A stretch of DNA of 64,000 nt from a virus. The notes below the pieces were generated by a model, which worked only from the letters and a program-made list of their open reading frames with translations, was not told where the DNA came from and made no database searches. The stretch is from positions 1-64,000 of IMG/VR virus record IMGVR_UViG_3300024265_000043. One strand, written 5' to 3'. Both the position numbers and the translations under genes were made by a program. Of the stretch, positions 38,582 through 63,845 are shown in pieces (positions within the stretch are counted from its first letter, which is position 1; every line of letters starts with the position of its first letter).

Positions 38582-38641
38582 TTACAGAGCCACTGCAAAA
38601 TTGAAGACATATCCCATCCAAGATAGCTTGAGCAAATTAGG

Positions 38642-38666
38642 AGAAATGGGGCGCTCAACACGCCCC
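38642..38666 (-). terminator. Possible terminator/attenuator after recT
   Basis: GGGGCG-tgttgag-CGCCCC-ATTTCT on - strand. Confidence 0.45.
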
Positions 38667-40782: not shown

Positions 40783-40893
40783 TTGTTGTTTCTCCTTTAA
40801 TTACTGCCAGTGCACCAACTCTCTGATCCGCTGTTTGCTAAACTCAGATTTAGAATTTCTTACTCTGTTTAGCGGTAGAAGATGCACCAGCAA

Positions 40894-41873: not shown

Positions 41874-42123
41874 GAGTTCTGCTCCCTATTCTTTCCCCAA
41901 ATCCACTATTAACAAAATTATCTACCTTCTTTTGAAGCCCTTTTGATACTGTCCCAGGTGTTTCCGTCAACCCCATTTCTAAATATTTATCAAATCGAAC
42001 TATTTGACAAGACTTCAATTTTTCAACCGTTGTTTCATTCCCGCATCCTATACATGCTTTGGCGCAGAAACTAACAAACTTATCTTCATATTCCTGTAGC
42101 GTCATATATTGAGTTAATGTCAT
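41854..42123 (-). CDS. Hypothetical protein
   Basis: ATGA overlap with recombinase stop suggests start at 42123. Confidence 0.5.
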   Translation of the reverse strand: MTLTQYMTLQEYEDKFVSFCAKACIGCGNETTVEKLKSCQIVRFDKYLEMGLTETPGTVSKGLQKKVDNFVNSGFGERIGSRTLGRTNN

Positions 42124-43031
42124 ATAGTGAGCCCGCTTAATATGGCTTTCCCAACAGTTCCCTTTATGGAGGGGTGGCAATAAGTCTTTGCAATAACTTC
42201 TGGAGAGACGCCAAACATCATGCTCAATTCTTTCTCGCGAAATATTGGGGTGATACCATCTTCTCCAGTTTGTTCATAAAATTTTGTAATGCAATAATGC
42301 CTGAATGCATGAGGATGAACCCAGCCCAAATCTATTGACTTTGCAATCTCTTTAATGATCCCCCACATGCGATGTGTTGCGACCTTAAATAATGGATCAC
42401 TGCTGCTCACATCAGCATAATCATTGAAAGCCTCCAACAATCTTGGAGTCAAAGGTACCATCCTTTCACCGCCATAGATGGATTTGCCCTCGGTTTTTGT
42501 TGATCTCAATGTCACAATATTGTTTGGCAAATCGAAATCAGATGCTCTGAGCATTGCAATTTCATGGGCCCTGGCACCGAGACATATCATGCACTCCAGT
42601 AAAAATCTATCTCTGCCGGATGAATTCTCTCTGAATAGTTTAACATCATCTTCGGTGAGAATCTTTTTCGACTTAGCTTTGTCAGAAACGGATTTCCTGA
42701 TTGGTATATTAAATGACGGCGCATTCTTAATCGCTTTAATTTCCACGAGATAATCGTAATATTTCCGAAGTGCCGTCTTGACGTGCTGCCGATACCCAGA
42801 AGGATGCCCGCTATTTAATAATGCATCGAAATATGCCCTGATATTGGCTCCCGAAGCGGCGGCAAGGCAACCATATTTTTTAATTCTATCAGCGTTTCCT
42901 TTTGGAATATCTATATTAGATATTGCCCAACGATTAAACATGCGAAGCCTGCTGACATTCTGACGGATAGTTTCTTCAGAAAGCGTAGATTGTGCAATAA
43001 GAAATTCACTAAATCGGTTTTCCCAAGTCAC
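42120..43031 (-). CDS. Tyrosine recombinase (Xer/integrase family)
   Basis: GARAHEI (Arg), TK, HPHAFRH (HxxR), TYCH (Tyr); N-terminal core-binding domain. Confidence 0.85.
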   Translation of the reverse strand: MTWENRFSEFLIAQSTLSEETIRQNVSRLRMFNRWAISNIDIPKGNADRIKKYGCLAAASGANIRAYFDALLNSGHPSGYRQHVKTALRKYYDYLVEIKAIKNAPSFNIPIRKSVSDKAKSKKILTEDDVKLFRENSSGRDRFLLECMICLGARAHEIAMLRASDFDLPNNIVTLRSTKTEGKSIYGGERMVPLTPRLLEAFNDYADVSSSDPLFKVATHRMWGIIKEIAKSIDLGWVHPHAFRHYCITKFYEQTGEDGITPIFREKELSMMFGVSPEVIAKTYCHPSIKGTVGKAILSGLTI

Positions 43032-48271: not shown

Positions 48272-48973
48272 CTATTCTTCCATATCTATGAACACTAAAT
48301 CTTCAATATATTCTCGTGCTTGAGTAAAAATAGGAATCTCATAATCGGTTGACAAATCCTTCGACGATACGCAGAAACCACGCTTTTCTTTCGTTTGAAG
48401 GTCATTCCAATTCACGCCATGCTCTTCAAATAGCATATCTTGAATTTGATCGTTTTTCAGTCCTTGCATTTTTTTATGGCTGATTAAAGATTGCCCCAAA
48501 GACTGGATGCTGTTCCTGGTGGCATCCTGTTGTCTCCAAATGAAATAGTTTGCAACTTCTTCTTTTGGCAGGATAAAAGCCCTTGAGTCAAACGTTACTA
48601 ATCCTGGGATCGAAAATCCTGTTGATTGTGCGGCGGCATTGAATTGATACGTAGATATGCCAGCACTCACGCTCACGATTTTTTGCAGGGAATTATCAAA
48701 CCAAGAAGAAGTATCTCGTTTCTTGTAATTTATCATCAGAATAGAAATCTCATCGCTCTGCACATAGGCTAGAACGGCATTCTGCATTTCAGATACTAGC
48801 CTTCGAGCCGTTTGCGCCATTAATTCCATCATCCTTGGGTCAAAAGGCTTTTCCATGCCTCTAGTGACTGTATGAAATGCCTTGCCGTCTATGCGAACTA
48901 TTACTGGAGATCGCTCAGGCATCTTTATGGAAAATGCCTTCTCATATTTTTTCATTCTATCGCTTAAATTCAT
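48272..48973 (-). CDS. tRNA(His) guanylyltransferase Thg1-like protein (3'-5' polymerase)
   Basis: VRIDGKAFH, YVQSDEIS, FDSRAF, YFIWRQQDATRNS. Confidence 0.92.
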   Translation of the reverse strand: MNLSDRMKKYEKAFSIKMPERSPVIVRIDGKAFHTVTRGMEKPFDPRMMELMAQTARRLVSEMQNAVLAYVQSDEISILMINYKKRDTSSWFDNSLQKIVSVSAGISTYQFNAAAQSTGFSIPGLVTFDSRAFILPKEEVANYFIWRQQDATRNSIQSLGQSLISHKKMQGLKNDQIQDMLFEEHGVNWNDLQTKEKRGFCVSSKDLSTDYEIPIFTQAREYIEDLVFIDMEE

Positions 48974-52703: not shown

Positions 52704-52726
52704 TTCTGCCTTTCTGTTCAATGTTT

Positions 52727-52815
52727 TCGCGCCCCCGCTATTCGGTATATCAGCGGATGTTAGGATTCACTATTTCACCTATTGGCGGATCGCCAGTCGT
52801 AGGACGGAGGCGCGA
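52727..52815 (-). ncRNA. Intergenic multibranch structured element
   Basis: Closing stem TCGCGCC/GGCGCGA enclosing four hairpins. Confidence 0.5.
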
Positions 52816-52829
52816 TGTTTAGTTCTGTT

Positions 52830-55257: not shown

Positions 55258-55596
55258 TCACGATTTATCACCTAAGTTTAATTTAGCCCTTGGGTCGCCT
55301 TCTTCCTCGTAAGACTGTTTAATAAGTTCTTCACAAGGCACATATTCACCGTTTATCCACTCGCAAATCCCAAAGTAATCACCCGTATAATAAACATGCA
55401 ATTCTTGACCATTAAGCCATTTCAAAAGGGGCTTTTCTTTGTCGCTCCCCTGTACATCATAAGAAAGCCGTGCCGCATTGTATGCACTGTGATACATGCC
55501 CACAACAGCATTGTCATATAAAATTACAAATTCATAAAGAGACAGCCACAAAACACTTATATGATCATCAATTTTGTTTACTTGCTGGTAGTTCAT
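55258..55596 (-). CDS. Hypothetical protein
   Basis: Start reassigned to MNYQ after AAAGGCA SD. Confidence 0.55.
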   Translation of the reverse strand: MNYQQVNKIDDHISVLWLSLYEFVILYDNAVVGMYHSAYNAARLSYDVQGSDKEKPLLKWLNGQELHVYYTGDYFGICEWINGEYVPCEELIKQSYEEEGDPRAKLNLGDKS

Positions 55597-55618
55597 TTCG
55601 TGCCTTTCTAAAGTTAGC

Positions 55619-55658
55619 GCCAGCTCCCGAATCGAACGAGAGCAAGTACCATACTGGC
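55619..55658 (-). ncRNA. Three-way-junction element, copy 6 (canonical T-loop)
   Basis: - strand GCCA GTA tgg TAC tt GCTCTCG TTCGATT CGGGAGC TGGC gcta. Confidence 0.55.
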
Positions 55659-55930
55659 TAATGACGGTCGTCGTCGAACTCGTGCATATAAACACGCCCT
55701 TTGCCGTCGGTTTCCAGCCCGTCAATGATAGTCCCGTTATCTACGTTTCGGTACATTTGTCCGGTGGTGTACATTGTAACGACCTTGCGGCTCAAACCCC
55801 CAGGATTCCGCGCCAATAGGCACACCTGAGATTTTTTATTCGCGTAGTCGAGCGAATATTCTATTACCGGAACATCTGGCTTTGCTGGCTCTCTGCCAAG
55901 GATTCTGTTAATCACGGATGGCTTAGTCAT
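55658..55930 (-). CDS. Hypothetical protein
   Basis: 90 aa, AAGGAG SD. Confidence 0.6.
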   Translation of the reverse strand: MTKPSVINRILGREPAKPDVPVIEYSLDYANKKSQVCLLARNPGGLSRKVVTMYTTGQMYRNVDNGTIIDGLETDGKGRVYMHEFDDDRH

Positions 55931-55953
55931 CTTTTCTCCTTCGGTTAGTTAGC

Positions 55954-55998
55954 GCCGCCGCTGGTAGTCAACCAGGCAATGAGTACACATTCGGCGGC
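55954..55998 (-). ncRNA. Three-way-junction element, copy 5
   Basis: - strand GCCGCCG AATG tgtact CATT gc CTGG ttgacta CCAG CGGCGGC gcta. Confidence 0.65.
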
Positions 55999-56008
55999 TG
56001 GGTAGAAA

Positions 56009-58049
56009 CTATTTATCTATTGTTACCATCCTTGCATTTACTCCCGTTTGCCTGAATGATTCAGCTCCCTTAAACGAACCTTCTTCCAGTTTTTCAGCGC
56101 ATCCATTGACATCTTCCAGCCATTCCCGAAACTCCACGGCCTTGGCGTCTGTTCTGAAAAATGGGCTTTCACTCATTAGACAGACCACTCGCCCGCCGTC
56201 GTTCAGCATCTCAAAGGCTCTCTTGATGTGGTCAATATCTGCCATTTTCTCAAAGGGCGGATTCATTATGATGCGGTCAAATGGTGAGCAATTCCGCCAG
56301 AAATCCACGTCTAGGAAATCCCACCCGCCTAAATCGTGTCCCTTGGCTTTTAGAATCTTCCGAAGGGTAGAATTTACCTCCACGGTTTTTAAATATGCGT
56401 TGGGCCACAATTCCTTGATAGCGTCGGCAATATCGCCCTTGCCCGCCGATGGCTCTAAAATGGTGTTGCTCTCTTCAATGGCTGCTCTCTCAATCATCAA
56501 ATCAATTACAGGGCGTGGAGTGGGGAAAAATCCGTCTATTTTGCACCCGATTAATTCCCGTTCAAGTTCTGCAATTGTTCGCGCCTTAATCTCCGCTTCT
56601 GTTGGTGGCTTAATATATGCCTCCAGCGCTGCCATGACTTCGGCGGAATTAGATTCCTTCACACCTGCCTTTTTCGTTCTGTCGGTCCCGTACCATTTCC
56701 AACCCTCGGGATGATAAGAGGCACGGGCGGCATTATCTAAAATATCAGCGATAACCGCCTTGGATCTGATAGCCTTTAAACAGTCTGGAAGTGTTCCCGC
56801 TTCGATATCATTAGCAAGACCGTAGAGCACAGATTGAATTTTTTGCAATCGTTCGCCGTCTTTTCGCATGGATTCGGCAATCCTTGCCCGCCTAGCTGTT
56901 GGGTTCTGCTGGCTGACTCCAGAATTAAATTTCCCGTCAATTTGTGCGGTCATCTTGTCGGCCATTGCCCGCAATTTATCGCCGTTCTCTTTTATCAAGG
57001 TTTCCCCCTTCGGCCTGGTGGACTTGGCGGTCTGTTCTACTGCTTGCCCTGCCAGTTCCTCAGCTAATAGCCTTTGCTGTTCGTGGTCCTTGGCATACCA
57101 AAAGCCGTATTTCCGATGCCAACGAAAGCCAGTATTTTTTAAACGATCCCTGATTTCTGCCGAAGGTTTGGCCGTGAATATCAATTCAATACCGTTTTTA
57201 TTTGGATTCTCTCGCAATTCGCAAAGTGCGCTCGTGCTGGTTGCCTGTTCTTTGGGTGCCTGTTCTGGTTTTGCGTCGGTTTTGGGTAGTTGGTTTCCCC
57301 CCTCTTCCATAATAATCAGCGCCAATTGATCCACATAATGAGAGCCTTGCAGGTCATATTTGCGAATTTCCCACCCTGTATCATGTCGATAACCGCCTTT
57401 GAGGAAATAGCCCGCACCCATCGAATACTTTTGGCGGTGTTCTTGCTTTTTGTCGTCGCCTGTTAGGTGTTGAACCTCTTCAAAGCCTGAAGCCTTGGCA
57501 ATTTTCCGCATTTCTGAGAAAATATCGCGATTGTGCCCGCTGAATCCTAACAACACCGCTCGCACTTCACGAGAACCGAAATAATCGCTCTGCATGTCGC
57601 TGGTATCTTCTTTATAGATAGCAACGATTGCCCCTTTGGTGCCTATTGGCATCAGTTCAGCCAGCAATATTTTGCCCTGTTCTCGCTTGGTCTCTCGATC
57701 TTCCAGTGGTCTCTCGATCTTCCAGTGCTCGCTCGTTGTTCTGCTTGCGCTGCTCTTTTGCCCTCATAGCAATATCACGCGCCGCCAAAGCTTCTTCTGC
57801 TGTTCTCATTTCGCCAGTTAGACGGAATCCATAGCGGTTGCCTCCCACTGGCTCAATTTGGCTATGTGCAACTTGTGTGGTGCCAGGCGTGTCGGTCCAG
57901 GCAATGTTTATCATGTTACCCACTTCAAAGATGATACCTTTATCATGGGTGCCCCTGTTCTCATATTGAACGACTGCACCAACTTTAAGGCCTTCGGCGG
58001 TGTTCGGCTGATGCCCGTTGTTCATATCAAAAATACTAATGACTGTCAT
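56009..58049 (-). pseudogene. Polyvalent protein with C-terminal N6-adenine methyltransferase, split by a 19-bp duplication (ORFs 57657-58049 and 56009-57667)
   Basis: FFPTP, LEPSAGKG, IMNPPF; removing one repeat copy fuses both ORFs into 673 aa. Confidence 0.75.
57688..57727. repeat. Perfect 19-bp tandem duplication
   Basis: GTCTCTCGATCTTCCAGTG at 57690-57708 and 57709-57727. Confidence 0.95.
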
Positions 58050-58059
58050 GTTTTGCCCT

Positions 58060-58662
58060 TTATGCGCCTAGTTTTGCTAGTGTGGTTTTGGTTGCTTCGC
58101 CATTTTCCAGCATGTCCTCTAGTTCGTCACGGTGGCGCGTATCGCCTATCCTGTTATGGCTGTGGTTAATCTCATTCCCTCTATTAAATAACACTGAATG
58201 AGTTATTGCCCCGTCATTGACCGCAATCACTGTAGAACCAATAATATAATATTCCACCGTGTGAAAGATTGCCGTAATATCAGCGGCCAATTCCCGCACG
58301 TTATCAAGTGCCGTTTTTGGAGGTTGCGCCATGTCTGCGCATGCTTCCCTTACTTGTGGGGTTGCTAAATATCTTTCAGCCTGTTCTAAGACATTAACCA
58401 CGTTATTTAATGGATGATGTTCATCAAGTAAGATAAAGACATAACCGCCACCGCATTTTTCGCCACCAATCATGGTCGAACCAAGAAGGCAATATCGCAC
58501 TCGCATTTCTTTGGCCGCTTGTTCGTGACATTCCTCAATCCTTTTGGACATGTCGCGGTCAATTATTACTGTTTCATTATCCCAGGTTGCTTTAATCCTA
58601 GAGCCGTGATAATCATCAGGCCCTAAAAATTCTGTTTGAATCACGTAACTATCCGTTATCAT
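58060..58662 (-). CDS. Hypothetical phage protein
   Basis: IQTEFLGP....GSRIKAT N-terminal motif. Confidence 0.65.
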   Translation of the reverse strand: MITDSYVIQTEFLGPDDYHGSRIKATWDNETVIIDRDMSKRIEECHEQAAKEMRVRYCLLGSTMIGGEKCGGGYVFILLDEHHPLNNVVNVLEQAERYLATPQVREACADMAQPPKTALDNVRELAADITAIFHTVEYYIIGSTVIAVNDGAITHSVLFNRGNEINHSHNRIGDTRHRDELEDMLENGEATKTTLAKLGA

Positions 58663-58699
58663 CGTCTAACCTCATTATTTATTATTTTGTTCTATCCGT

Positions 58700-58747
58700 G
58701 CCGCCGTCGGTATCGCTCCGAATCAAGGGCTAAACCCTTTCGGCGGC
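58700..58747 (-). ncRNA. Three-way-junction element, copy 4
   Basis: - strand GCCGCCG a AAGGG tttag CCCTT gat TCGG agcgata CCGA CGGCGGC acgg. Confidence 0.65.
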
Positions 58748-58758
58748 TAGCTGTGAGG

Positions 58759-58986
58759 TTAAACAGCCAAATTCGCAAAGTAAATATCTGCATTGTCGCG
58801 TCTATCGGCTGGAAAACTTTGCCCATAATTCACCCCGTCTATTGAGAAGGTGACGGAAATACAGGCCTTGTTTTTGCGCACACCAGCACCAGCAACGACC
58901 AGACCGTCACCAATAGTCACCATTTTTAGTGGATTGCCATTTGCCGTGGTGCCTGTTTTGATTATTTTTCTTGTCGCCATTTCCAT
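58759..58986 (-). CDS. Hypothetical protein
   Basis: Start reassigned to MEMATRK after GAGGT SD. Confidence 0.55.
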   Translation of the reverse strand: MEMATRKIIKTGTTANGNPLKMVTIGDGLVVAGAGVRKNKACISVTFSIDGVNYGQSFPADRRDNADIYFANLAV

Positions 58987-59011
58987 GATTTTAACCTCGT
59001 TTTCTGTTAGT

Positions 59012-59053
59012 GCCGCCGTTGGATTTGACTCCGTGCCTCCATGCATCGGCGGC
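59012..59053 (-). ncRNA. Three-way-junction element, copy 3 (degenerate inner hairpins)
   Basis: - strand GCCGCCG a TGC atggag GCA c GG agtcaaat CC aa CGGCGGC acta. Confidence 0.55.
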
Positions 59054-59067
59054 TGTTCATGTCCCCC

Positions 59068-60150
59068 TTAGATTCTTATGGGCATTAACAGTGCGGTTAT
59101 ATCGACGCCACAAGGTAATTTGTCCTTAATGATCGTGGCACCATAGTTATAAAAATCCCTATCTTCTCGTGGCTGCGTGCGCTTTGAATACTGCACTTCC
59201 ACAATTTCGGACTTAAGACTTTTAAGTACGGTTTCTAAAAGGGCTAAGTCATAAGCCACCGGGGCGTCGTCGCCACACTGTTCTTGTAGCTGCACTGTGT
59301 TTTCCCATTCCGTGCAGCTCTCAATATCTTCAACGAATACCCTTAGATCTTTTGGGGAAAAAGTAAATACACCCTTTTTGGTTTCCTTGTTAGCAAATCC
59401 TAGACCTTCTTTAATCGTGCCGATTAAATCGGTTCTGTTAATATCAGCCAAGCCGCCGAAATCAGAAGGGAAAACCGAGCGAAAATCTGGATAGACTTCA
59501 TCAACAAGATGAGAATATATTTTCATTCCCTCGGTTGTGACTCTCAAATACTTATCTCCAATTTCCACAAATGGGGCCTCCGTCCCTTTCTTGTCGATAA
59601 GTTTTAGCCATTCAGGGCTAATAATTCCCTCAAATTCGCCTGCATCGGCTGTAAATCCTTCACGTAGGCACATTTTGTGCCCATCCGTGGAACACATTTC
59701 CAATAGCCCGTCTATTTGCTTCACATAGACGCCCATCAGCGACGGCTTTAGTTCGTCCTTTGAGATAAATCCAACTTGTACTTGCAGGTTCTCAATAATG
59801 GATCTTGACCACCTGCCAAGGGGTGTAAAAGTATCTTCTGGATGGATTGGGAATTGTTCAGGGTCAGTATTGGGAAATTTCACCTTTTTCCCATCATACC
59901 CCAGGACTACCTTGTCCCCGTCGGTTTCAATCTCAATATTGGCTGGTTTGGTTGCCAGTACCTTTTTTAAGACCTTCAACGGTATTGCATAATTGCCCGC
60001 TATATCTATCGGAATTGTGACGGTTGTATCAAGATTTGTAATTCTTGCAATTCCGCCACTTATGCAGATCATCCCAAGTATTGGATAAGTTGGGTTTGCA
60101 GTCAAGATTTTGGTTGATAGTTTTGTTAGTCGTGTTAGTTCGTTAATCAT
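59068..60150 (-). CDS. dnaN: DNA polymerase III beta sliding clamp
   Basis: YPIL, TNLD, QFP, STDGHKM, YPDFRSVFP, C-terminal LLMPIRI. Confidence 0.88.
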   Translation of the reverse strand: MINELTRLTKLSTKILTANPTYPILGMICISGGIARITNLDTTVTIPIDIAGNYAIPLKVLKKVLATKPANIEIETDGDKVVLGYDGKKVKFPNTDPEQFPIHPEDTFTPLGRWSRSIIENLQVQVGFISKDELKPSLMGVYVKQIDGLLEMCSTDGHKMCLREGFTADAGEFEGIISPEWLKLIDKKGTEAPFVEIGDKYLRVTTEGMKIYSHLVDEVYPDFRSVFPSDFGGLADINRTDLIGTIKEGLGFANKETKKGVFTFSPKDLRVFVEDIESCTEWENTVQLQEQCGDDAPVAYDLALLETVLKSLKSEIVEVQYSKRTQPREDRDFYNYGATIIKDKLPCGVDITALLMPIRI

Positions 60151-60190
60151 TTTTCTGCCTTTCGATTGTTGTTTAACCTCATTCGTTAGT

Positions 60191-60237
60191 TGCTACCGTA
60201 GGCAATGAGCCTAGTAATGCCGTCGCATTCGGTAGCA
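60191..60237 (-). ncRNA. Three-way-junction element, copy 2
   Basis: - strand TGCTACCG AATGC gacg GCATT ac TAGG ctcattg CCTA CGGTAGCA acta. Confidence 0.65.
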
Positions 60238-60242
60238 TTCCT

Positions 60243-60458
60243 TTATTTCCTTATAAATTCCCCCACTTCATAAAATACATGTCGTGTTATTAAGTCGCCA
60301 TTTTCATCGGTGAAATCCGCCCTTGCACGCTTGCCCCTAGTTTCCAGCAGTTGCCCGCACTGAATCCGTGCCCCTTCGATAATTTGGTCTAGGCTACCGA
60401 TAGCCTTGTATTCCTTAACCGGGACATGAGAAGCACTATAAATAGTTACTGTGGTCAT
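60243..60458 (-). CDS. Hypothetical protein
   Basis: 71 aa. Confidence 0.55.
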   Translation of the reverse strand: MTTVTIYSASHVPVKEYKAIGSLDQIIEGARIQCGQLLETRGKRARADFTDENGDLITRHVFYEVGEFIRK

Positions 60459-60469
60459 AGTCCTGCCCT

Positions 60470-60805
60470 CTAATAATCGTCGTTACGTGATAATTCTAAG
60501 CAGTCAACGCTGCAATAAGTATCATCTAAATCGCTCGGGTGAATCTCACCTCCGCATTGTTCACAAGATCCTTTGGCAGTTTGTGGATCATTAGACAGTT
60601 TTAAATCTGGATCATCAAATGGTGTGCTTTCCTTCTCTCCATACTCATAAAGAATATCGGCAATCTTCTGCATTATTTCCGTGGGCAATGATAGCCAATG
60701 CGTGGAGGTGTCCCCGTGGTGCATTTTTATTTGTCCCTTATATTCTGAATCCTTGCACGAATCCAAAACAGGCTCAATTTGGTTTTTGTGGTAGTTGTAG
60801 CTCAT
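60470..60805 (-). CDS. Hypothetical protein with C-terminal Zn finger
   Basis: CEQC...YCSVDC. Confidence 0.6.
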   Translation of the reverse strand: MSYNYHKNQIEPVLDSCKDSEYKGQIKMHHGDTSTHWLSLPTEIMQKIADILYEYGEKESTPFDDPDLKLSNDPQTAKGSCEQCGGEIHPSDLDDTYCSVDCLELSRNDDY

Positions 60806-60985
60806 TTATTTCCCCTTTCCCCGAATGTGCCCAGTAACAACAAACCGCCTAAATGATGCAACGACGCCCGCAACCGTACCTTTATAGGTAGGTCCGAAGG
60901 ATACGCCAGTCCAGCCACAAGGCCTTATTTCTAATGATAGCCACACCCTACTTTTGGATATATTGCCAATGCTGAAATGCTTCAT
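60806..60985 (-). CDS. Small hypothetical protein
   Basis: Probable start MKHF at TAATG overlap. Confidence 0.4.
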   Translation of the reverse strand: MKHFSIGNISKSRVWLSLEIRPCGWTGVSFGPTYKGTVAGVVASFRRFVVTGHIRGKGK

Positions 60986-61284
60986 TAGGTTGCCCCTTCG
61001 ACTAGGAATTGACCAACAGCGACAAAATATGCAGGGTGATCTTTGGGGAGTCGGTCCCGCAATAGATCGGCACAACAGGCGCTTAACTCGGTGCCGTCTA
61101 TTTCGTCAGATTCGTCACTATAGCGACCATTAAGGGTAAAGTCTACTAGCCCCGTAGAATCGAAAGCAGCCGTAAACCTATTGCCTTGAAGGGTCGAACA
61201 AGGCCAGCCTACGCTTAACCAGTCGTATACATCCCCTTGGCTGGCGTACAGGGTGACAAAATTCTCTGTTATTTCTACTCTCAT
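60985..61284 (-). CDS. Hypothetical phage protein
   Basis: WPCSTL...FDS.GLVD motif. Confidence 0.6.
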   Translation of the reverse strand: MRVEITENFVTLYASQGDVYDWLSVGWPCSTLQGNRFTAAFDSTGLVDFTLNGRYSDESDEIDGTELSACCADLLRDRLPKDHPAYFVAVGQFLVEGAT

Positions 61285-61296
61285 TGGAATTGCCCT

Positions 61297-61614
61297 TTAT
61301 CTTAGGTGTTGATGTGCCGCACAATAAGTATTGTCTGTGAGCGCCATATAAACACGGTGGCAAGTATGGCAATTAAATAATTCATCTGGGTTTACTTCAA
61401 CCGCAACCCCATTAACAATATGCGCTTGGAAATCATCGTCCCAATAATCATCTGGTAAATAAACGTGCTGCGCTTCATCAATTTGGCCCCATTCCCCTTC
61501 ACCGCAGGCACGATCTACGATGCCGTTATTTACGCGCAAGAATATCGTGCTAACGCCACCCTTATCTTTATAAAATGGGTCGTCGTTTTTAATTTCTGTC
61601 TGATAATACCTCAT
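61297..61614 (-). CDS. Hypothetical protein with Cys/His cluster
   Basis: CHTC...CAAH. Confidence 0.6.
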   Translation of the reverse strand: MRYYQTEIKNDDPFYKDKGGVSTIFLRVNNGIVDRACGEGEWGQIDEAQHVYLPDDYWDDDFQAHIVNGVAVEVNPDELFNCHTCHRVYMALTDNTYCAAHQHLR

Positions 61615-61650
61615 AATTCTTGCCTTTCGATGTGTTTAACCTCAGTGAGT

Positions 61651-61696
61651 GCCGTCGTAAGTAATGGACTTAGTAAGGGCTGTACCCTTCGACGGC
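61651..61696 (-). ncRNA. Three-way-junction element, copy 1
   Basis: - strand GCCGTCG AAGGG tacag CCCTT ac TAAG tccatta CTTA CGACGGC actc. Confidence 0.65.
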
Positions 61697-61706
61697 GGGA
61701 ATTATG

Positions 61707-61922
61707 CTAGAGTATCAATTCTTGCTCGGTTTCAATTATACACGCTTCCCAATATTCAGCCAGCCAGGAAAGATCGTCTGATGCGTCACTAATTGCGCTA
61801 TCAACTTGGTGGCATTCACCATATGTGGGCTGAATAATATCATCAACATAAGACCTCAATTCTTCCACCACCATAATGGCTCTTTTTAAATCGGTGATTT
61901 GCTCGGATGTTGGTTTTGGCAT
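61707..61922 (-). CDS. Small acidic hypothetical protein
   Basis: 71 aa. Confidence 0.55.
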   Translation of the reverse strand: MPKPTSEQITDLKRAIMVVEELRSYVDDIIQPTYGECHQVDSAISDASDDLSWLAEYWEACIIETEQELIL

Positions 61923-61923
61923 T

Positions 61924-62202
61924 TTAGTATGTCCTTCTGTCAGATAATGGTCGTTTAGTTGCGTATGCCAATTCGTCGCGTAATTGAAATTCGATTTCTT
62001 CTTTTGCGGCTTTCAACGTATCCCAAATGCCAGCATATTGATATAGTGTCCCATCATTATAATGTAATTCAGCATACCAGCCTTGTTTTTCACCATAACG
62101 GGCTTTACGGATCTGACCAAATTTCTCCCCAGCACTATAGCGATAATAGCCCTTTACAGGGTCATTCCGTCGCCATTCGCCTAGTTTGTTGTTGTCGGTC
62201 AT
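61924..62202 (-). CDS. Hypothetical protein, first gene of - operon
   Basis: Start MTDNN after AAAGGCA SD. Confidence 0.6.
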   Translation of the reverse strand: MTDNNKLGEWRRNDPVKGYYRYSAGEKFGQIRKARYGEKQGWYAELHYNDGTLYQYAGIWDTLKAAKEEIEFQLRDELAYATKRPLSDRRTY

Positions 62203-63461
62203 TTGATGATTGCCTTTCAACTGTTATTTAACCTCAATTCTAGAATCAATTTCGCCCCTCACTACCTCATTGTCAAGTCTTTTCTTATCTTTTTTATTAT
62301 CTCATTCGTACTCCTTATATATAGGGCATACCACCCCAAACTTTATTTTAAAGCAAATGTGTGAATATTACGTCACATCATCGCCTAGCAACTCTTAATA
62401 TATAAAGTACCCCATAGCGTCCCCTTATATCTCTTGTATATACTCTCTACTCATGCCCTTTTAAAGGACTTACACCATATATCACACTTATTATATGTTG
62501 CTTATATCTTATATACTGGTAATCATTCAGTAATACTAACCTGCTACTACACCACACCACCTAACTAGAACAGCAACAAGGCACCCCTAAAGTATATATA
62601 TTCTCAATATGATACACTGCACATAGCACAGCACACAACGCCCCACTCATGCCCTTTTACTGAACTTAGCCCATGTATATATATAAGATAGTGTATGTGA
62701 AGATATACTACATGTATCATAATGAGACATAGAATCATTTAATAGAGGACAAGCAATACTTGTTTTCGTTCGCAGCCCCTTTTGACGATTCGCCCCAAAT
62801 TTTCCACTTACCATATACCCAGCCATACCGCACAATAATCTAGTGTAGATTATTACATTGGATGTGTGCCCCGTCGTGATAGGTATGCTAAGGGATGGGG
62901 GTTAGTTACATTTGGGGGAGTCCCACCGCTTGAACCGGGGAGGTCCCCCACCATTACTACCCATTCCGTGCCTTATTTTTACTTGTAAGGGAAATTATAT
63001 TTAATTGCGGCTAGTGTATTGGTGTTGTGTTCGGTTGTTTATTTCTTGGAGGTATGGCTATATACGTATATAATTACACCATCCAGAAATGGACCAGTTT
63101 TGTTTGAATCACCTAGACAATTATGTGATATCACACTTTATTATGTTAATTAGAATGATTTGTCTTAATTAGAAGATATTGATTTCATGGGACTTAAGTG
63201 TTATGCTTGTATGTAGTACTATAAACATACCATCCAGAAATGGACCTTTTGCCCCTGCATATATGTATTCTAGTAAGCTTTGATTCTTAAAGAAAAGAAT
63301 ATATCCCCCCTCCAAAAGTCTATTTCGGGATGCGTGTGTAGGATGATAGCATGTATGTATGTTAGCATGCAACCAAAACGATTTTATTTCTTGTTGTTAT
63401 GCGTAGGTATGTTTATATTGTTGCATGTAGATAGTATAACATAATATAATAAGGAGAGCAA
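62203..63461. other. Long AT-rich non-coding divergent control region with repeats and palindromes
   Basis: No credible ORFs; direct repeats ACTCATGCCCTTTTA x2 and ACCATCCAGAAATGGACC x2; palindromes TATATACGTATATA and TGTGATATCACA. Confidence 0.7.
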
Positions 63462-63845
63462 ATGTTGTATGATTATTCGCGTGCGGTTTATGTTCAGGTT
63501 GCTGAATTTATTCGTGAGTCAATTCTGAGCGGGGAGTATCCCGAGGGTGAGAAAATCCCATCATCGGGGGAGTTGGCGGAAATCTATGAAACCTCTAGGC
63601 AGACCGTGCTCCTCGCTGTGAAGGAACTTAGGTTTGAAGGATACCTAGATAGCCAAATTGGACACACAATCAACGTCATAGACGGAGCAAGGCTGGGAGT
63701 CAAGGCTTGGATATTAAAACTCCTGAACGAACGAGATGTGCCGAAAATTGTGAAAACGGCAAGGTTGCTCGAAATGACACAGACCGAGTTGATTGGTCTA
63801 CTGAAAGCAGAATTTGAGAAACCAGAGCCTGAAAAATCTTCTTGA
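63462..63845 (+). CDS. GntR-family transcriptional regulator (YtrA-like)
   Basis: VYVQVAEFIRESILSGEY.EGEKIPS..ELA.....SRQTV..A..EL...G, short helical C-terminus; AAGGAG SD. Confidence 0.88.
   Translation: MLYDYSRAVYVQVAEFIRESILSGEYPEGEKIPSSGELAEIYETSRQTVLLAVKELRFEGYLDSQIGHTINVIDGARLGVKAWILKLLNERDVPKIVKTARLLEMTQTELIGLLKAEFEKPEPEKSS

Follow-up and report, generated by a model that had tools for sequence, protein, structure and literature searches.

A family of predicted three-way junction elements between the early genes of a siphovirus-like phage from a subsurface metagenome

Organization of the Early Operon and Its Intercistronic Elements

The DNA analyzed here comprises the first 64 kb (64,000 nucleotides, referred to as the window) of the IMG/VR virus record IMGVR_UViG_3300024265_000043, a contig of 83,714 bases with a G+C content of 42% that was recovered from a subsurface metagenome. 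Encoded on this contig are a tape-measure protein, SNF2-type and DnaB-like helicases, a sliding clamp, methyltransferases, RecT-like and YqaJ-like recombination proteins, a Thg1-like protein, a Xer-like tyrosine recombinase and a GntR-type regulator, and its sequence points to a siphovirus-like phage. A leftward early operon occupies the minus strand between 62202 and about 35390. Six short stretches between its genes, here called E1 to E6, had been described in a first-pass annotation as structured elements of the minus strand, and all six were confirmed on this strand at the coordinates listed in Table 1. Five of them (E1 to E5) form a family of compact, branched elements of 42–48 nt, which is accompanied by one doubtful copy (E6). 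This family is real and uncatalogued, and it is confined to the first 6.7 kb of the leftward operon.

The placement of the elements relative to the genes is uniform. As had been noted before, each of them starts soon after a stop codon and lies ahead of the next ribosome-binding site, with gaps of 6–14 nt for E1 to E5 and an overlap with the TAG stop codon in the case of E6. Every element ends 22–41 nt ahead of an ATG that is accompanied by a Shine-Dalgarno-like motif, and the distance between element and Shine-Dalgarno motif amounts to 7–26 nt. The leaders that follow the elements share several short motifs: an RCTAAC tail occurs in four of the six copies, and GAGGTTAAA and/or GAAAGGCA are found in five of the six leaders as well as in the leader that opens the operon, being absent after E5. 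Apart from these motifs the modules, i.e., the elements together with their leaders, are rather dissimilar in sequence, as their pairwise identity ranges from 38 to 65% and the longest identical run between any two of them is the 12-nt stretch TGAGGTTAAACA shared by E1 and E2.

Table 1. Positions and properties of the intercistronic elements, the leaders that follow them and selected genes of the phage (positions are those of the window; MFE, minimum free energy; R1, covariance model built from E1 to E5).
Feature	Position	Strand	Start of element	Description	MFE (kcal/mol)	z-score	R1 score (bits)
E1	61651-61696	-	10 nt past TAG	Three-way junction; outer stem of 7 bp, GCCGTCG/CGACGGC; hairpin 1 of 6 bp with 3-nt loop and U-G closing pair, then AC linker; hairpin 2 of 5 bp with 5-nt loop, abutting outer stem	-18.4	-4.11	67.5
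E2	60191-60237	-	6 nt past TAA (outer stem from 60236)	Three-way junction; outer stem GCTACCG/CGGTAGC, extension by one U-A pair possible; hairpin 1 of 5 bp with 4-nt loop, then AC linker; hairpin 2 of 5 bp with 5-nt loop, abutting outer stem; sliding-clamp gene directly downstream	-22.4	-5.27	59.2
E3	59012-59053	-	14 nt past TAA	Weakest core copy; outer stem GCCGCCG/CGGCGGC; inner hairpins of 3 bp each; AA linker ahead of 3′ strand; downstream of clamp gene	-17.3	-2.52	43.8
E4	58700-58747	-	11 nt past TAA	Three-way junction; outer stem GCCGCCG/CGGCGGC; hairpin 1 of 6 bp with 3-nt loop, stem sequence identical to that of E1; hairpin 2 of 4 bp with 7-nt loop, abutting outer stem	-22.9	-3.36	57.3
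E5	55954-55998	-	10 nt past TAG	Three-way junction; outer stem GCCGCCG/CGGCGGC; hairpin 1 of 4 bp with 6-nt loop, then GC linker; hairpin 2 of 5 bp with 5-nt loop, abutting outer stem; downstream of apparently frameshifted methyltransferase gene	-19.5	-2.77	60.2
E6	55619-55658	-	First G is last base of TAG	Doubtful, divergent copy; 4-bp outer stem GCCA/TGGC, 11-nt bulge, 7-bp hairpin with 7-nt loop TTCGATT	-13.8	-1.85	
Leader after E1	61615-61650	-		ACTCAC, GAGGTTAAAC, TCGAAAGGCA, ATG at 61614			
Leader after E2	60151-60190	-		ACTAAC, GAGGTTAAAC, TCGAAAGGCA, clamp ATG at 60150			
Leader after E3	58987-59011	-		ACTAAC, GAGGTTAAA as Shine-Dalgarno motif, ATG at 58986			
Leader after E4	58663-58699	-		A/U-rich spacer, GAGGTTAGA as Shine-Dalgarno motif, ATG at 58662			
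Leader after E5	55931-55953	-		GCTAAC, AAGGAG Shine-Dalgarno motif, ATG at 55930			
Leader after E6	55597-55618	-		GCTAAC, GAAAGGCA, ATG at 55596			
Leader of first gene of operon	62203-62235	-		GAGGTTAAA ... TGAAAGGCA module as in the later leaders; no three-way junction upstream			
Sliding clamp gene	59068-60150	-		Between E2 and E3			
GntR-family gene	63462-63845	+		Divergent from early operon			
Thg1-like 3′-5′ nucleotidyltransferase	48272-48973	-		Pfam PF04446, E 4.8e-30			
Xer-like tyrosine recombinase	42120-43031	-		Pfam Phage_integrase, 44.6 bits			

Predicted Folding and Covariation of the Elements

Structures were predicted by minimum free energy (MFE), and z-scores were calculated from 200 dinucleotide shuffles per element. 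E1 to E5 each fold by MFE as a 7-bp, G+C-rich outer stem around two hairpins, with energies between -17.3 and -22.9 kcal/mol, and none of the 200 shuffles of E1 was as stable as the element itself. The weakest of the five is E3, whose centroid structure retains the outer stem alone and loses both inner hairpins. The first-pass annotation had assigned the fold of an outer stem enclosing two hairpins to all six elements, which holds for E1 to E5 and does not hold for E6. The MFE structure of the latter is not a three-way junction, nine of its 200 shuffles were equally stable, and with the outer stem enforced its energy amounts to -12.8 kcal/mol and the first hairpin is absent. Its likeness to E5 is confined to the position and to the GGCGCTAAC tail, and E6 is regarded as a doubtful, divergent relative of the other five. 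In the gap that contains E4, and only there, the CCTCA directly after the stop codon (58748-58758) can pair with the TGAGG Shine-Dalgarno motif (58669-58673) and would then enclose the junction, the MFE of the whole gap being -26.4 kcal/mol.

The whole 83.7-kb genome was also scanned for any three-way fold of 36–53 nt whose outer stem comprised 6 bp or more. Seven such folds on the minus strand reached -17 kcal/mol or lower, five of which are E1 to E5, while 15 dinucleotide shuffles of the genome contained between zero and two (mean 0.67). The clustering is also unusual, as five strong three-way folds lie within 6 kb in the phage genome vs. at most one in every shuffle.

A covariance model (R1) was built from E1 to E5, a step that had been proposed as a check in the first-pass annotation. 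In the genome R1 matches E1 to E5 only, with 43.8–67.5 bits on the minus strand and 14.4–36.1 bits for their reverse complements; E6 was missed by the model even with filters off and at E ≤ 10. In the alignment fitted to R1, 90.1% of the paired cells contain a base pair, and changes on both sides were observed in eight of the 17 pairs, namely in three pairs of the outer stem, one of hairpin 1 and four of hairpin 2. The compensatory changes that had been claimed for the outer stem were thus recovered, with three of its seven pairs changed on both sides and not a single unpaired cell. None of 500 column shuffles reached the observed pairing or covariation, and pairing fell to 23–60% when the 3′ partner columns were slid by one to three positions. 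The clearest pair of copies is formed by E1 and E2, in which the unpaired AC linker, a YCATT loop and the downstream leader are kept, while the three helices differ by compensated changes. As the five copies are paralogues and the alignment was fitted to the structure, these covariation figures have to be read as supportive rather than conclusive, and they suggest that the five elements are a family of covarying structures under selection for pairing.

Regarding the strand on which the fold might act, the sense strand is more stable than the antisense strand in all six elements, by 0.1–5.3 kcal/mol, and the same is true for all nine intercistronic structures considered (the six elements and three others of this phage, described below). 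The previously claimed preference of G-U wobbles for the minus strand is slight in E1 to E5, which contain two G-U pairs on the sense and one on the antisense strand, yet the energies point in the same direction. In addition, R1 is strand-specific as a consequence of the conserved unpaired bases. Because the fold is nearly symmetric, the strand evidence is modest, and it modestly favors RNA as the acting form.

The three other intercistronic structures, none of which is followed by a U-tract, all fold on the sense strand. At 52722-52829 (minus strand) a multibranch fold with a 12-bp G+C-rich outer stem and two or three hairpins (-35.6 kcal/mol) occupies the same type of position as the small junctions, its sequence being unrelated to theirs. 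A fold of ~89 nt at 40783-40893 (minus strand) possesses a long outer stem with some internal loops and a branched top, and its energy of -28.2 kcal/mol is 6.5 kcal/mol better than that of the antisense strand. The third one, located beyond the window at genome positions 72462-72510 (plus strand), is a three-way fold of -25.7 kcal/mol in a gap of a rightward operon, 24 nt ahead of an ATG preceded by GGAGG, with a stem sequence unlike that of E1 to E5.

Comparison With Known RNA and DNA Elements

Searches with Rfam 15 at the gathering score yielded no match in the window, nor in the 19.7 kb of the genome that lie beyond it. Also at E ≤ 10, no tRNA-clan match was obtained in 55300-62400 (7.1 kb), 58680-59070 (391 bases) or 55600-55680 (81 bases), and the output at this threshold consisted of noise only (snoTBR5, CRISPR repeat). 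A match to an established family, which would have spoken against the novelty proposed in the first-pass annotation, was accordingly not among the results. Furthermore, no published description of this element was found in the literature, the supplementary files of which lay outside the search.

The annotation had likened the elements to tRNAs. According to this reading, the outer stem would represent an acceptor stem that is stacked on the 3′ hairpin as T-arm, and these anticodon-less top-half mimics would be read by host enzymes, with RNase P cleaving on the 5′ side of G1 and either RNase Z or RNase E cleaving after the purine, so that single-gene messages result. The phage early operon would then be subject to a tRNA punctuation of the mitochondrial style, and the RNAs of ~45 nt released in this way may be substrates or decoys, e.g., for the Thg1-like 3′-5′ polymerase of the phage or for tRNA-attacking host defenses. 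The geometry agrees in part: G1 is paired with the last C and a purine follows the stem in all six elements, the outer stem comprises 7 bp in five of the six, and the 3′ hairpin adjoins the outer stem without a linker in four of the five core copies, E3 with its AA linker deviating from what had been claimed. Outer stem and 3′ hairpin form a continuous stack of 12 bp in three elements (E1, E2, and E5) and of 11 bp in two (E4 and E6), whereas the stack is broken in E3. The uniform G-C-closed 7-nt loop described for the 3′ hairpin was seen in the MFE structures of E4 and E6 only; E1, E2, and E5 are predicted to have a 5-bp stem with a 5-nt loop, and a uniform 7-nt loop would require one predicted pair to be left open in these three. 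With respect to sequence, the T-loop G-TTCGATT-C does exist in E6 and fits the tRNA T-loop consensus, but this is the doubtful copy rejected by R1, the motif GTTCRANYC is found in none of the other elements, and its eight occurrences in the window vs. 6.9 expected correspond to the chance level. Similarly, the tail that had been compared to NCCA is present insofar as a purine follows in all copies and a purine plus CTA in four of the six (in one of them offset by a base), whereas none of the six carries CCA. Hairpin 1 lacks a conserved GG loop for a tRNA-type elbow, and ARAGORN detected no tRNA in the window or in the whole genome. Taken together, tRNA identity fails every sequence-based criterion tried, and recognition by tRNA enzymes would be compatible with the elements by geometry only.

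A precedent for such signals is found in plant mitochondria. Forner et al. (2007; PMC1920247) describe t-elements and “acceptor-stem-like stem-loops” as proposed or mapped RNase P/Z signals at mitochondrial mRNA ends, the t-elements having been found via the T-arm motif GGTTCRANYCC and folding as non-canonical cloverleaves, and the acceptor-stem-like class working without a T-loop sequence. The phage elements resemble the t-elements in being non-tRNA folds at message boundaries, but only the doubtful E6 approaches GGTTCRANYCC, and the phage elements are known from sequence. Moreover, the phage itself encodes a Thg1-like enzyme (Table 1), a member of a family that acts on acceptor stems. Considering both the agreement in geometry and the negative Rfam, ARAGORN, T-loop and CCA results, we regard processing as tRNA mimics as unlikely. 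If the elements were indeed cut by tRNA-processing enzymes, the mitochondrial punctuation principle would be extended to bacterial viruses, and a compact processing signal for host enzymes would become available for synthetic biology.

The elements do not qualify as intrinsic terminators, as a U-tract is found behind none of the six, which is in line with the first-pass annotation; the 13 terminator-like sites detected on the two strands include no sense-strand element. A related explanation would be that they are terminators or attenuators that require a phage antiterminator and mediate a switch from immediate-early to delayed-early transcription. This would fit their stability, G+C-richness and intergenic position as well as their concentration in the first 6.7 kb past the promoter region, and the stem-loops of the PeSLs (promoter early stem-loop elements) of T4-type phages terminate in reporter assays (Arbiol et al., 2010; PMC2839356). 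However, besides the missing U-tract, the branching sets the fold apart from intrinsic terminator hairpins, two of the elements precede the clamp gene, which is an essential replication gene, and a more conventional hairpin with a short T-rich tail, similar to a weak intrinsic terminator, is located elsewhere in the early operon at about 38640-38665. We therefore rate an attenuator function as very unlikely, clearly below the other alternatives.

Sigma-70-like sites are not enriched (26 vs. 25.8 in shuffles), and the sole promoter-like site touching a module, at 61630-61603, reaches beyond the ATG at 61614 and ends 11 nt inside the downstream gene. This bears on the comparison with the PeSLs, which the first-pass annotation had named as an alternative. 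According to Arbiol et al. (2010; PMC2839356) and Comeau et al. (2014; PMC4122927), PeSLs are characterized by a strong sigma-70 promoter, together with an AT-rich upstream element, and by sequence conservation that spans about 100 bp. Like the modules of the present phage, they are repeated composite modules reaching from stop to start, with a stem-loop followed by Shine-Dalgarno motif and ATG, that flank orphan early genes. The differences, for a comparison that left the supplementary alignments aside, consist in the lack of a promoter, the identical runs of at most 12 nt and the covarying three-way junction. An assignment to the PeSLs was rejected, given that the modules contain no promoter and show no long sequence conservation.

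The start-associated sequences (SAS) and extended start-associated sequences (ESAS) of Cluster K mycobacteriophages offer another parallel. According to Pope et al. (2011; PMC3203893), the SAS is located just upstream of start codons, with an inverted repeat upstream of it in about half of the cases, all copies have one orientation, and the function is given as unknown; the ESAS is an imperfect inverted repeat of 17 bp that is conserved in sequence and has a spacer of 4–13 bp. The start-associated part has its counterpart in GAGGTTAAA and/or GAAAGGCA in five of the six leaders. The inverted repeat of the present elements differs from the ESAS, being a 7-bp stem that encloses 24–34 nt forming two variable hairpins (here, too, supplementary alignments were outside the comparison), and the elements were not classified as SAS/ESAS.

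Several other classes were considered and rejected. A T7-type RNase III site with ~20 bp of near-continuous duplex is not present, the longest continuous stack being 11–13 bp. Integron attC core sites read RYYYAAC ... GTTRRRY; the elements have outer stems of the GCCGCCG type instead, attC-like cores (GTTAAAC and GTTAGAC) are confined to the downstream leader, and the only tyrosine recombinase (42120-43031) reaches at most 69.9 bits, far under every NCBIfam cut-off. No Y1/HUH transposase was found that would fit repetitive extragenic palindromic (REP) sequences and REP-associated tyrosine transposases (RAYT). Hammerhead and other small ribozymes were dismissed as Rfam was silent, and the junction linkers of 0–3 nt leave no space for a catalytic core. 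Against N4-type hairpin promoters speak the non-uniform hairpin loops and the fact that no virion RNA polymerase was evident among the large proteins. In a comparison by eye with boxB/nut sites, hairpin polarity and loops differ. Pseudoknots between loops and leaders were rejected as well, with a 5-nt match in E2 as the sole candidate.

Relatives and Distribution

A blastn search of 55400-62000 against 50,697 phage records yielded no match. At the protein level, a protein 81% identical to the clamp was found on an ENA contig of 1,644 bp and another one, 83% identical to the 75-aa gene product encoded between E3 and E4, on a contig of 1,100 bp, which indicates that a sister phage exists, known so far from these protein matches alone. 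A more distant relative with a clamp of 43% identity is located on a JGI contig of 85.6 kb. Among viral contigs, the clamp protein had no match and the clamp alignment one distant match, and the search of contigs with the putative capsid protein gave one weak match. When the clamp alignment was searched against metagenome contigs, 166 relatives with at best 34% identity were obtained, 80 of which were kept; against genome contigs it yielded 72 matches of at most 34% identity, mostly DnaN of metagenome-assembled genomes (MAGs) of Neomarinimicrobiota or Lentisphaeria.

The element was absent from the loci of the clamp relatives with at most 34% identity. R1 at E ≤ 1 had no match in 985,508 and 1,218,329 bases of clamp-relative loci and none in five whole MAGs, and at E ≤ 0.01 it matched none of the 151 genomes of the phylum to which one of the clamp-matching MAGs belongs. 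A scan for three-way folds in the eight closest clamp loci revealed no family in common, and in the eight loci with listed clamp surroundings no three-way fold adjoins the clamp gene. The resolved neighbors of the clamp gene in the distant relatives mostly abut or overlap it. As these neighbors are tightly packed without such folds, the elements can be taken as additions rather than parts of the genes, and the modules look like lineage-specific additions. Pattern searches in viral contigs gave a similar picture: the outer stem plus tail pattern was met at 26 loci, apparently chance matches in coding sequence of G+C-rich contigs with at most 25.4 bits for R1, the leader-motif pattern at one locus, and the conserved unpaired bases of E1 and E2 at one locus that contains no outer stem.

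This distribution raises the question of a role at the level of DNA, in which the modules would serve as PeSL-like shuffling seams, i.e., as recombination points for single genes, the fold being incidental or acting as single-stranded DNA. Single genes are indeed bracketed by the elements, namely the 75-aa open reading frame (ORF) by E3 and E4, the 90-aa ORF by E5 and E6, and the clamp gene by E2 and E3. The two small ones among them are orphans: among 5.8 billion proteins, the 90-aa protein matched only itself and the 75-aa protein, for which the gene call in the sequence collection agrees with the form used here, only itself and the 83%-identical protein mentioned above. More generally, no PHROG family was found for nine of the ten small early proteins tested. 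Further points in favor are the absence of the elements around the clamp gene of distant relatives, the RecT-like and YqaJ-like recombination genes of the phage and the analogy to PeSLs, which likewise flank ORFans in a stop-to-start position (PMC2839356). On the other hand, the short identical runs and low identity of the modules differ from the roughly 100-bp conservation of PeSLs, the modules contain no sigma-70 promoter, no Y1/HUH transposase was found in the phage and the sole tyrosine recombinase is a generic Xer-like enzyme far below the NCBIfam cut-offs. In particular, compensatory changes in three helices would not be expected for a plain homology patch. A function of the modules as seams is in our view improbable.

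Possible Function of the Elements

Descriptions of phage early operons are usually confined to promoters, terminators and genes. Early mRNAs of phage T7 are in addition segmented by RNase III hairpins and bacterial operons by REP-type hairpins, and to our knowledge the layer of intercistronic folds has hardly been charted for tailed phages beyond the T7 and T4 groups. The elements described here belong among such structured intercistronic signals, which are a known kind, while the family itself is uncatalogued.

Our preferred reading, which is tentative and held with somewhat less than even confidence, is that the elements might be lineage-specific, cis-acting RNA structures, i.e., a punctuation of the stabilizer type that would protect or segment the early mRNA. 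In this scheme the junction would refold behind the terminating ribosome and form a stable 3′-terminal cap. Downstream of the junction, an RNase E/Y-type endonuclease would cleave the unstructured A-rich spacer, the G+C-rich branched fold would stop 3′-to-5′ exonucleases, and the upstream cistron would persist as a discrete message. The downstream leader with GAGGTTAAA and/or GAAAGGCA would be kept unpaired and translatable, so that the early transcript would be split into segments with separate lifetimes. The branched fold might thereby provide stability without a long duplex, which would be a target of RNase III, and without a long perfect palindrome in the DNA. All nuclease steps of this scheme are ones that we infer. 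The position of the elements fits a 3′ cap better than a terminator or promoter, since they start 6–14 nt past the stop codon, are followed by an unpaired A-rich spacer and by no T-run, and since sigma-70 sites occur at chance level.

Some observations weigh against such a stabilizing role. The covariation derives from five paralogues of one genome in a structure-fitted alignment, and the energy gap between sense and antisense is small in the five core copies (0.1–2.8 kcal/mol), so the elements may instead have a role as single-stranded DNA or at the DNA level. In addition, a plain hairpin would suffice to block an exonuclease, which leaves unexplained why the fold is a conserved three-way junction with a 7-bp outer stem and an abutting hairpin.

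The conserved unpaired bases could alternatively be seen as part of a protein operator, in which a protein of the phage or the host would bind the junction to set downstream translation, couple or uncouple cistrons, or modify the polymerase in a manner similar to boxB or put. In favor of such a binding site, the stems covary but certain unpaired bases persist, namely the AC linker and the YCATT loop of E1 and E2 and the RCTAAC tail of four of the six copies, and the Shine-Dalgarno motif follows at a distance of 7–26 nt. As nine of the ten small early proteins lack a PHROG family, a novel binder could be among them; a candidate RNA-binding protein was, however, not identified among the phage proteins. 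The unpaired positions are kept in two to four copies only, the Shine-Dalgarno motif lies outside the fold, and we know of no precedent for five or six polymerase-modifying sites within 6 kb, which likewise counts against this explanation. An operator function is consequently given a low probability. For antitermination of the put type, which the first-pass annotation had raised as an alternative, nothing specific speaks so far.

For the stabilizer-type punctuation, the closest known counterparts are the RNase III hairpins of the T7 early genes. Each of those sites is one long, irregular hairpin that spans about two helical turns, and a protective structure remains at the 3′ end of the upstream message. 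The present elements likewise are structured, come after stop codons within a single polycistronic early message and lack a U-tract; they differ in being branched with a stack of 11–13 bp, and they are known from sequence and predicted fold. If they merely act as a nuclease barrier, they would be an ordinary though uncatalogued stabilizer. Still, selected intercistronic RNA folds would represent a further layer of control in phage early operons, whether they divide the message, give its parts different stabilities or insulate the ribosome-binding sites. Owing to its compactness the family is easily tested, and the natural variants suggest pairs of mutations that break and restore the stems.

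Other Features of the Phage Genome

Between the rightward GntR gene and the leftward operon lies a non-coding, A+T-rich stretch of 1.2 kb (about 62230-63460), which is probably the early control region. It contains the best sigma-70-like sites of the region (63149-63120) and two pairs of direct repeats, one with GGTCCATTTCTGGATGGT near 63270 and 63090 and a second one with AAAAGGGCATGAGT near 62660 and 62465.

In comparison with cellular genomes, the phage clamp is closest to DnaN of Neomarinimicrobiota (Marinimicrobia) and Lentisphaeria MAGs with 27–34% identity, which might be taken as a weak hint at the host lineage. A search for sequencing runs that contain this DNA turned up one DNA run, probably its source, and no RNA run. 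Among the contigs of the DNA run one was identical to this DNA, and neither variants nor joints were seen.

The Thg1-like gene is present in a phage that has no tRNA gene detectable by ARAGORN in its whole 83.7 kb, and in the simplest reading the encoded enzyme would repair host tRNAs; a connection to the junction elements is speculative. Following the gene of the Xer-like recombinase, a stretch of 246 nt (41874-42119) contains no gene called by the ORF filter. The phage may be temperate, and this stretch could hold its attachment site.

Upstream of E5, the 19-base unit CACTGGAAGATCGAGAGAC is tandemly doubled at 57681-57740 (minus strand), where the ORFs of 130 aa (57657-58049) and 552 aa (56009-57667) overlap; because of this tandem repeat at the overlap, the gene with the methyltransferase domain looks as if it had been split by a frameshifting duplication.

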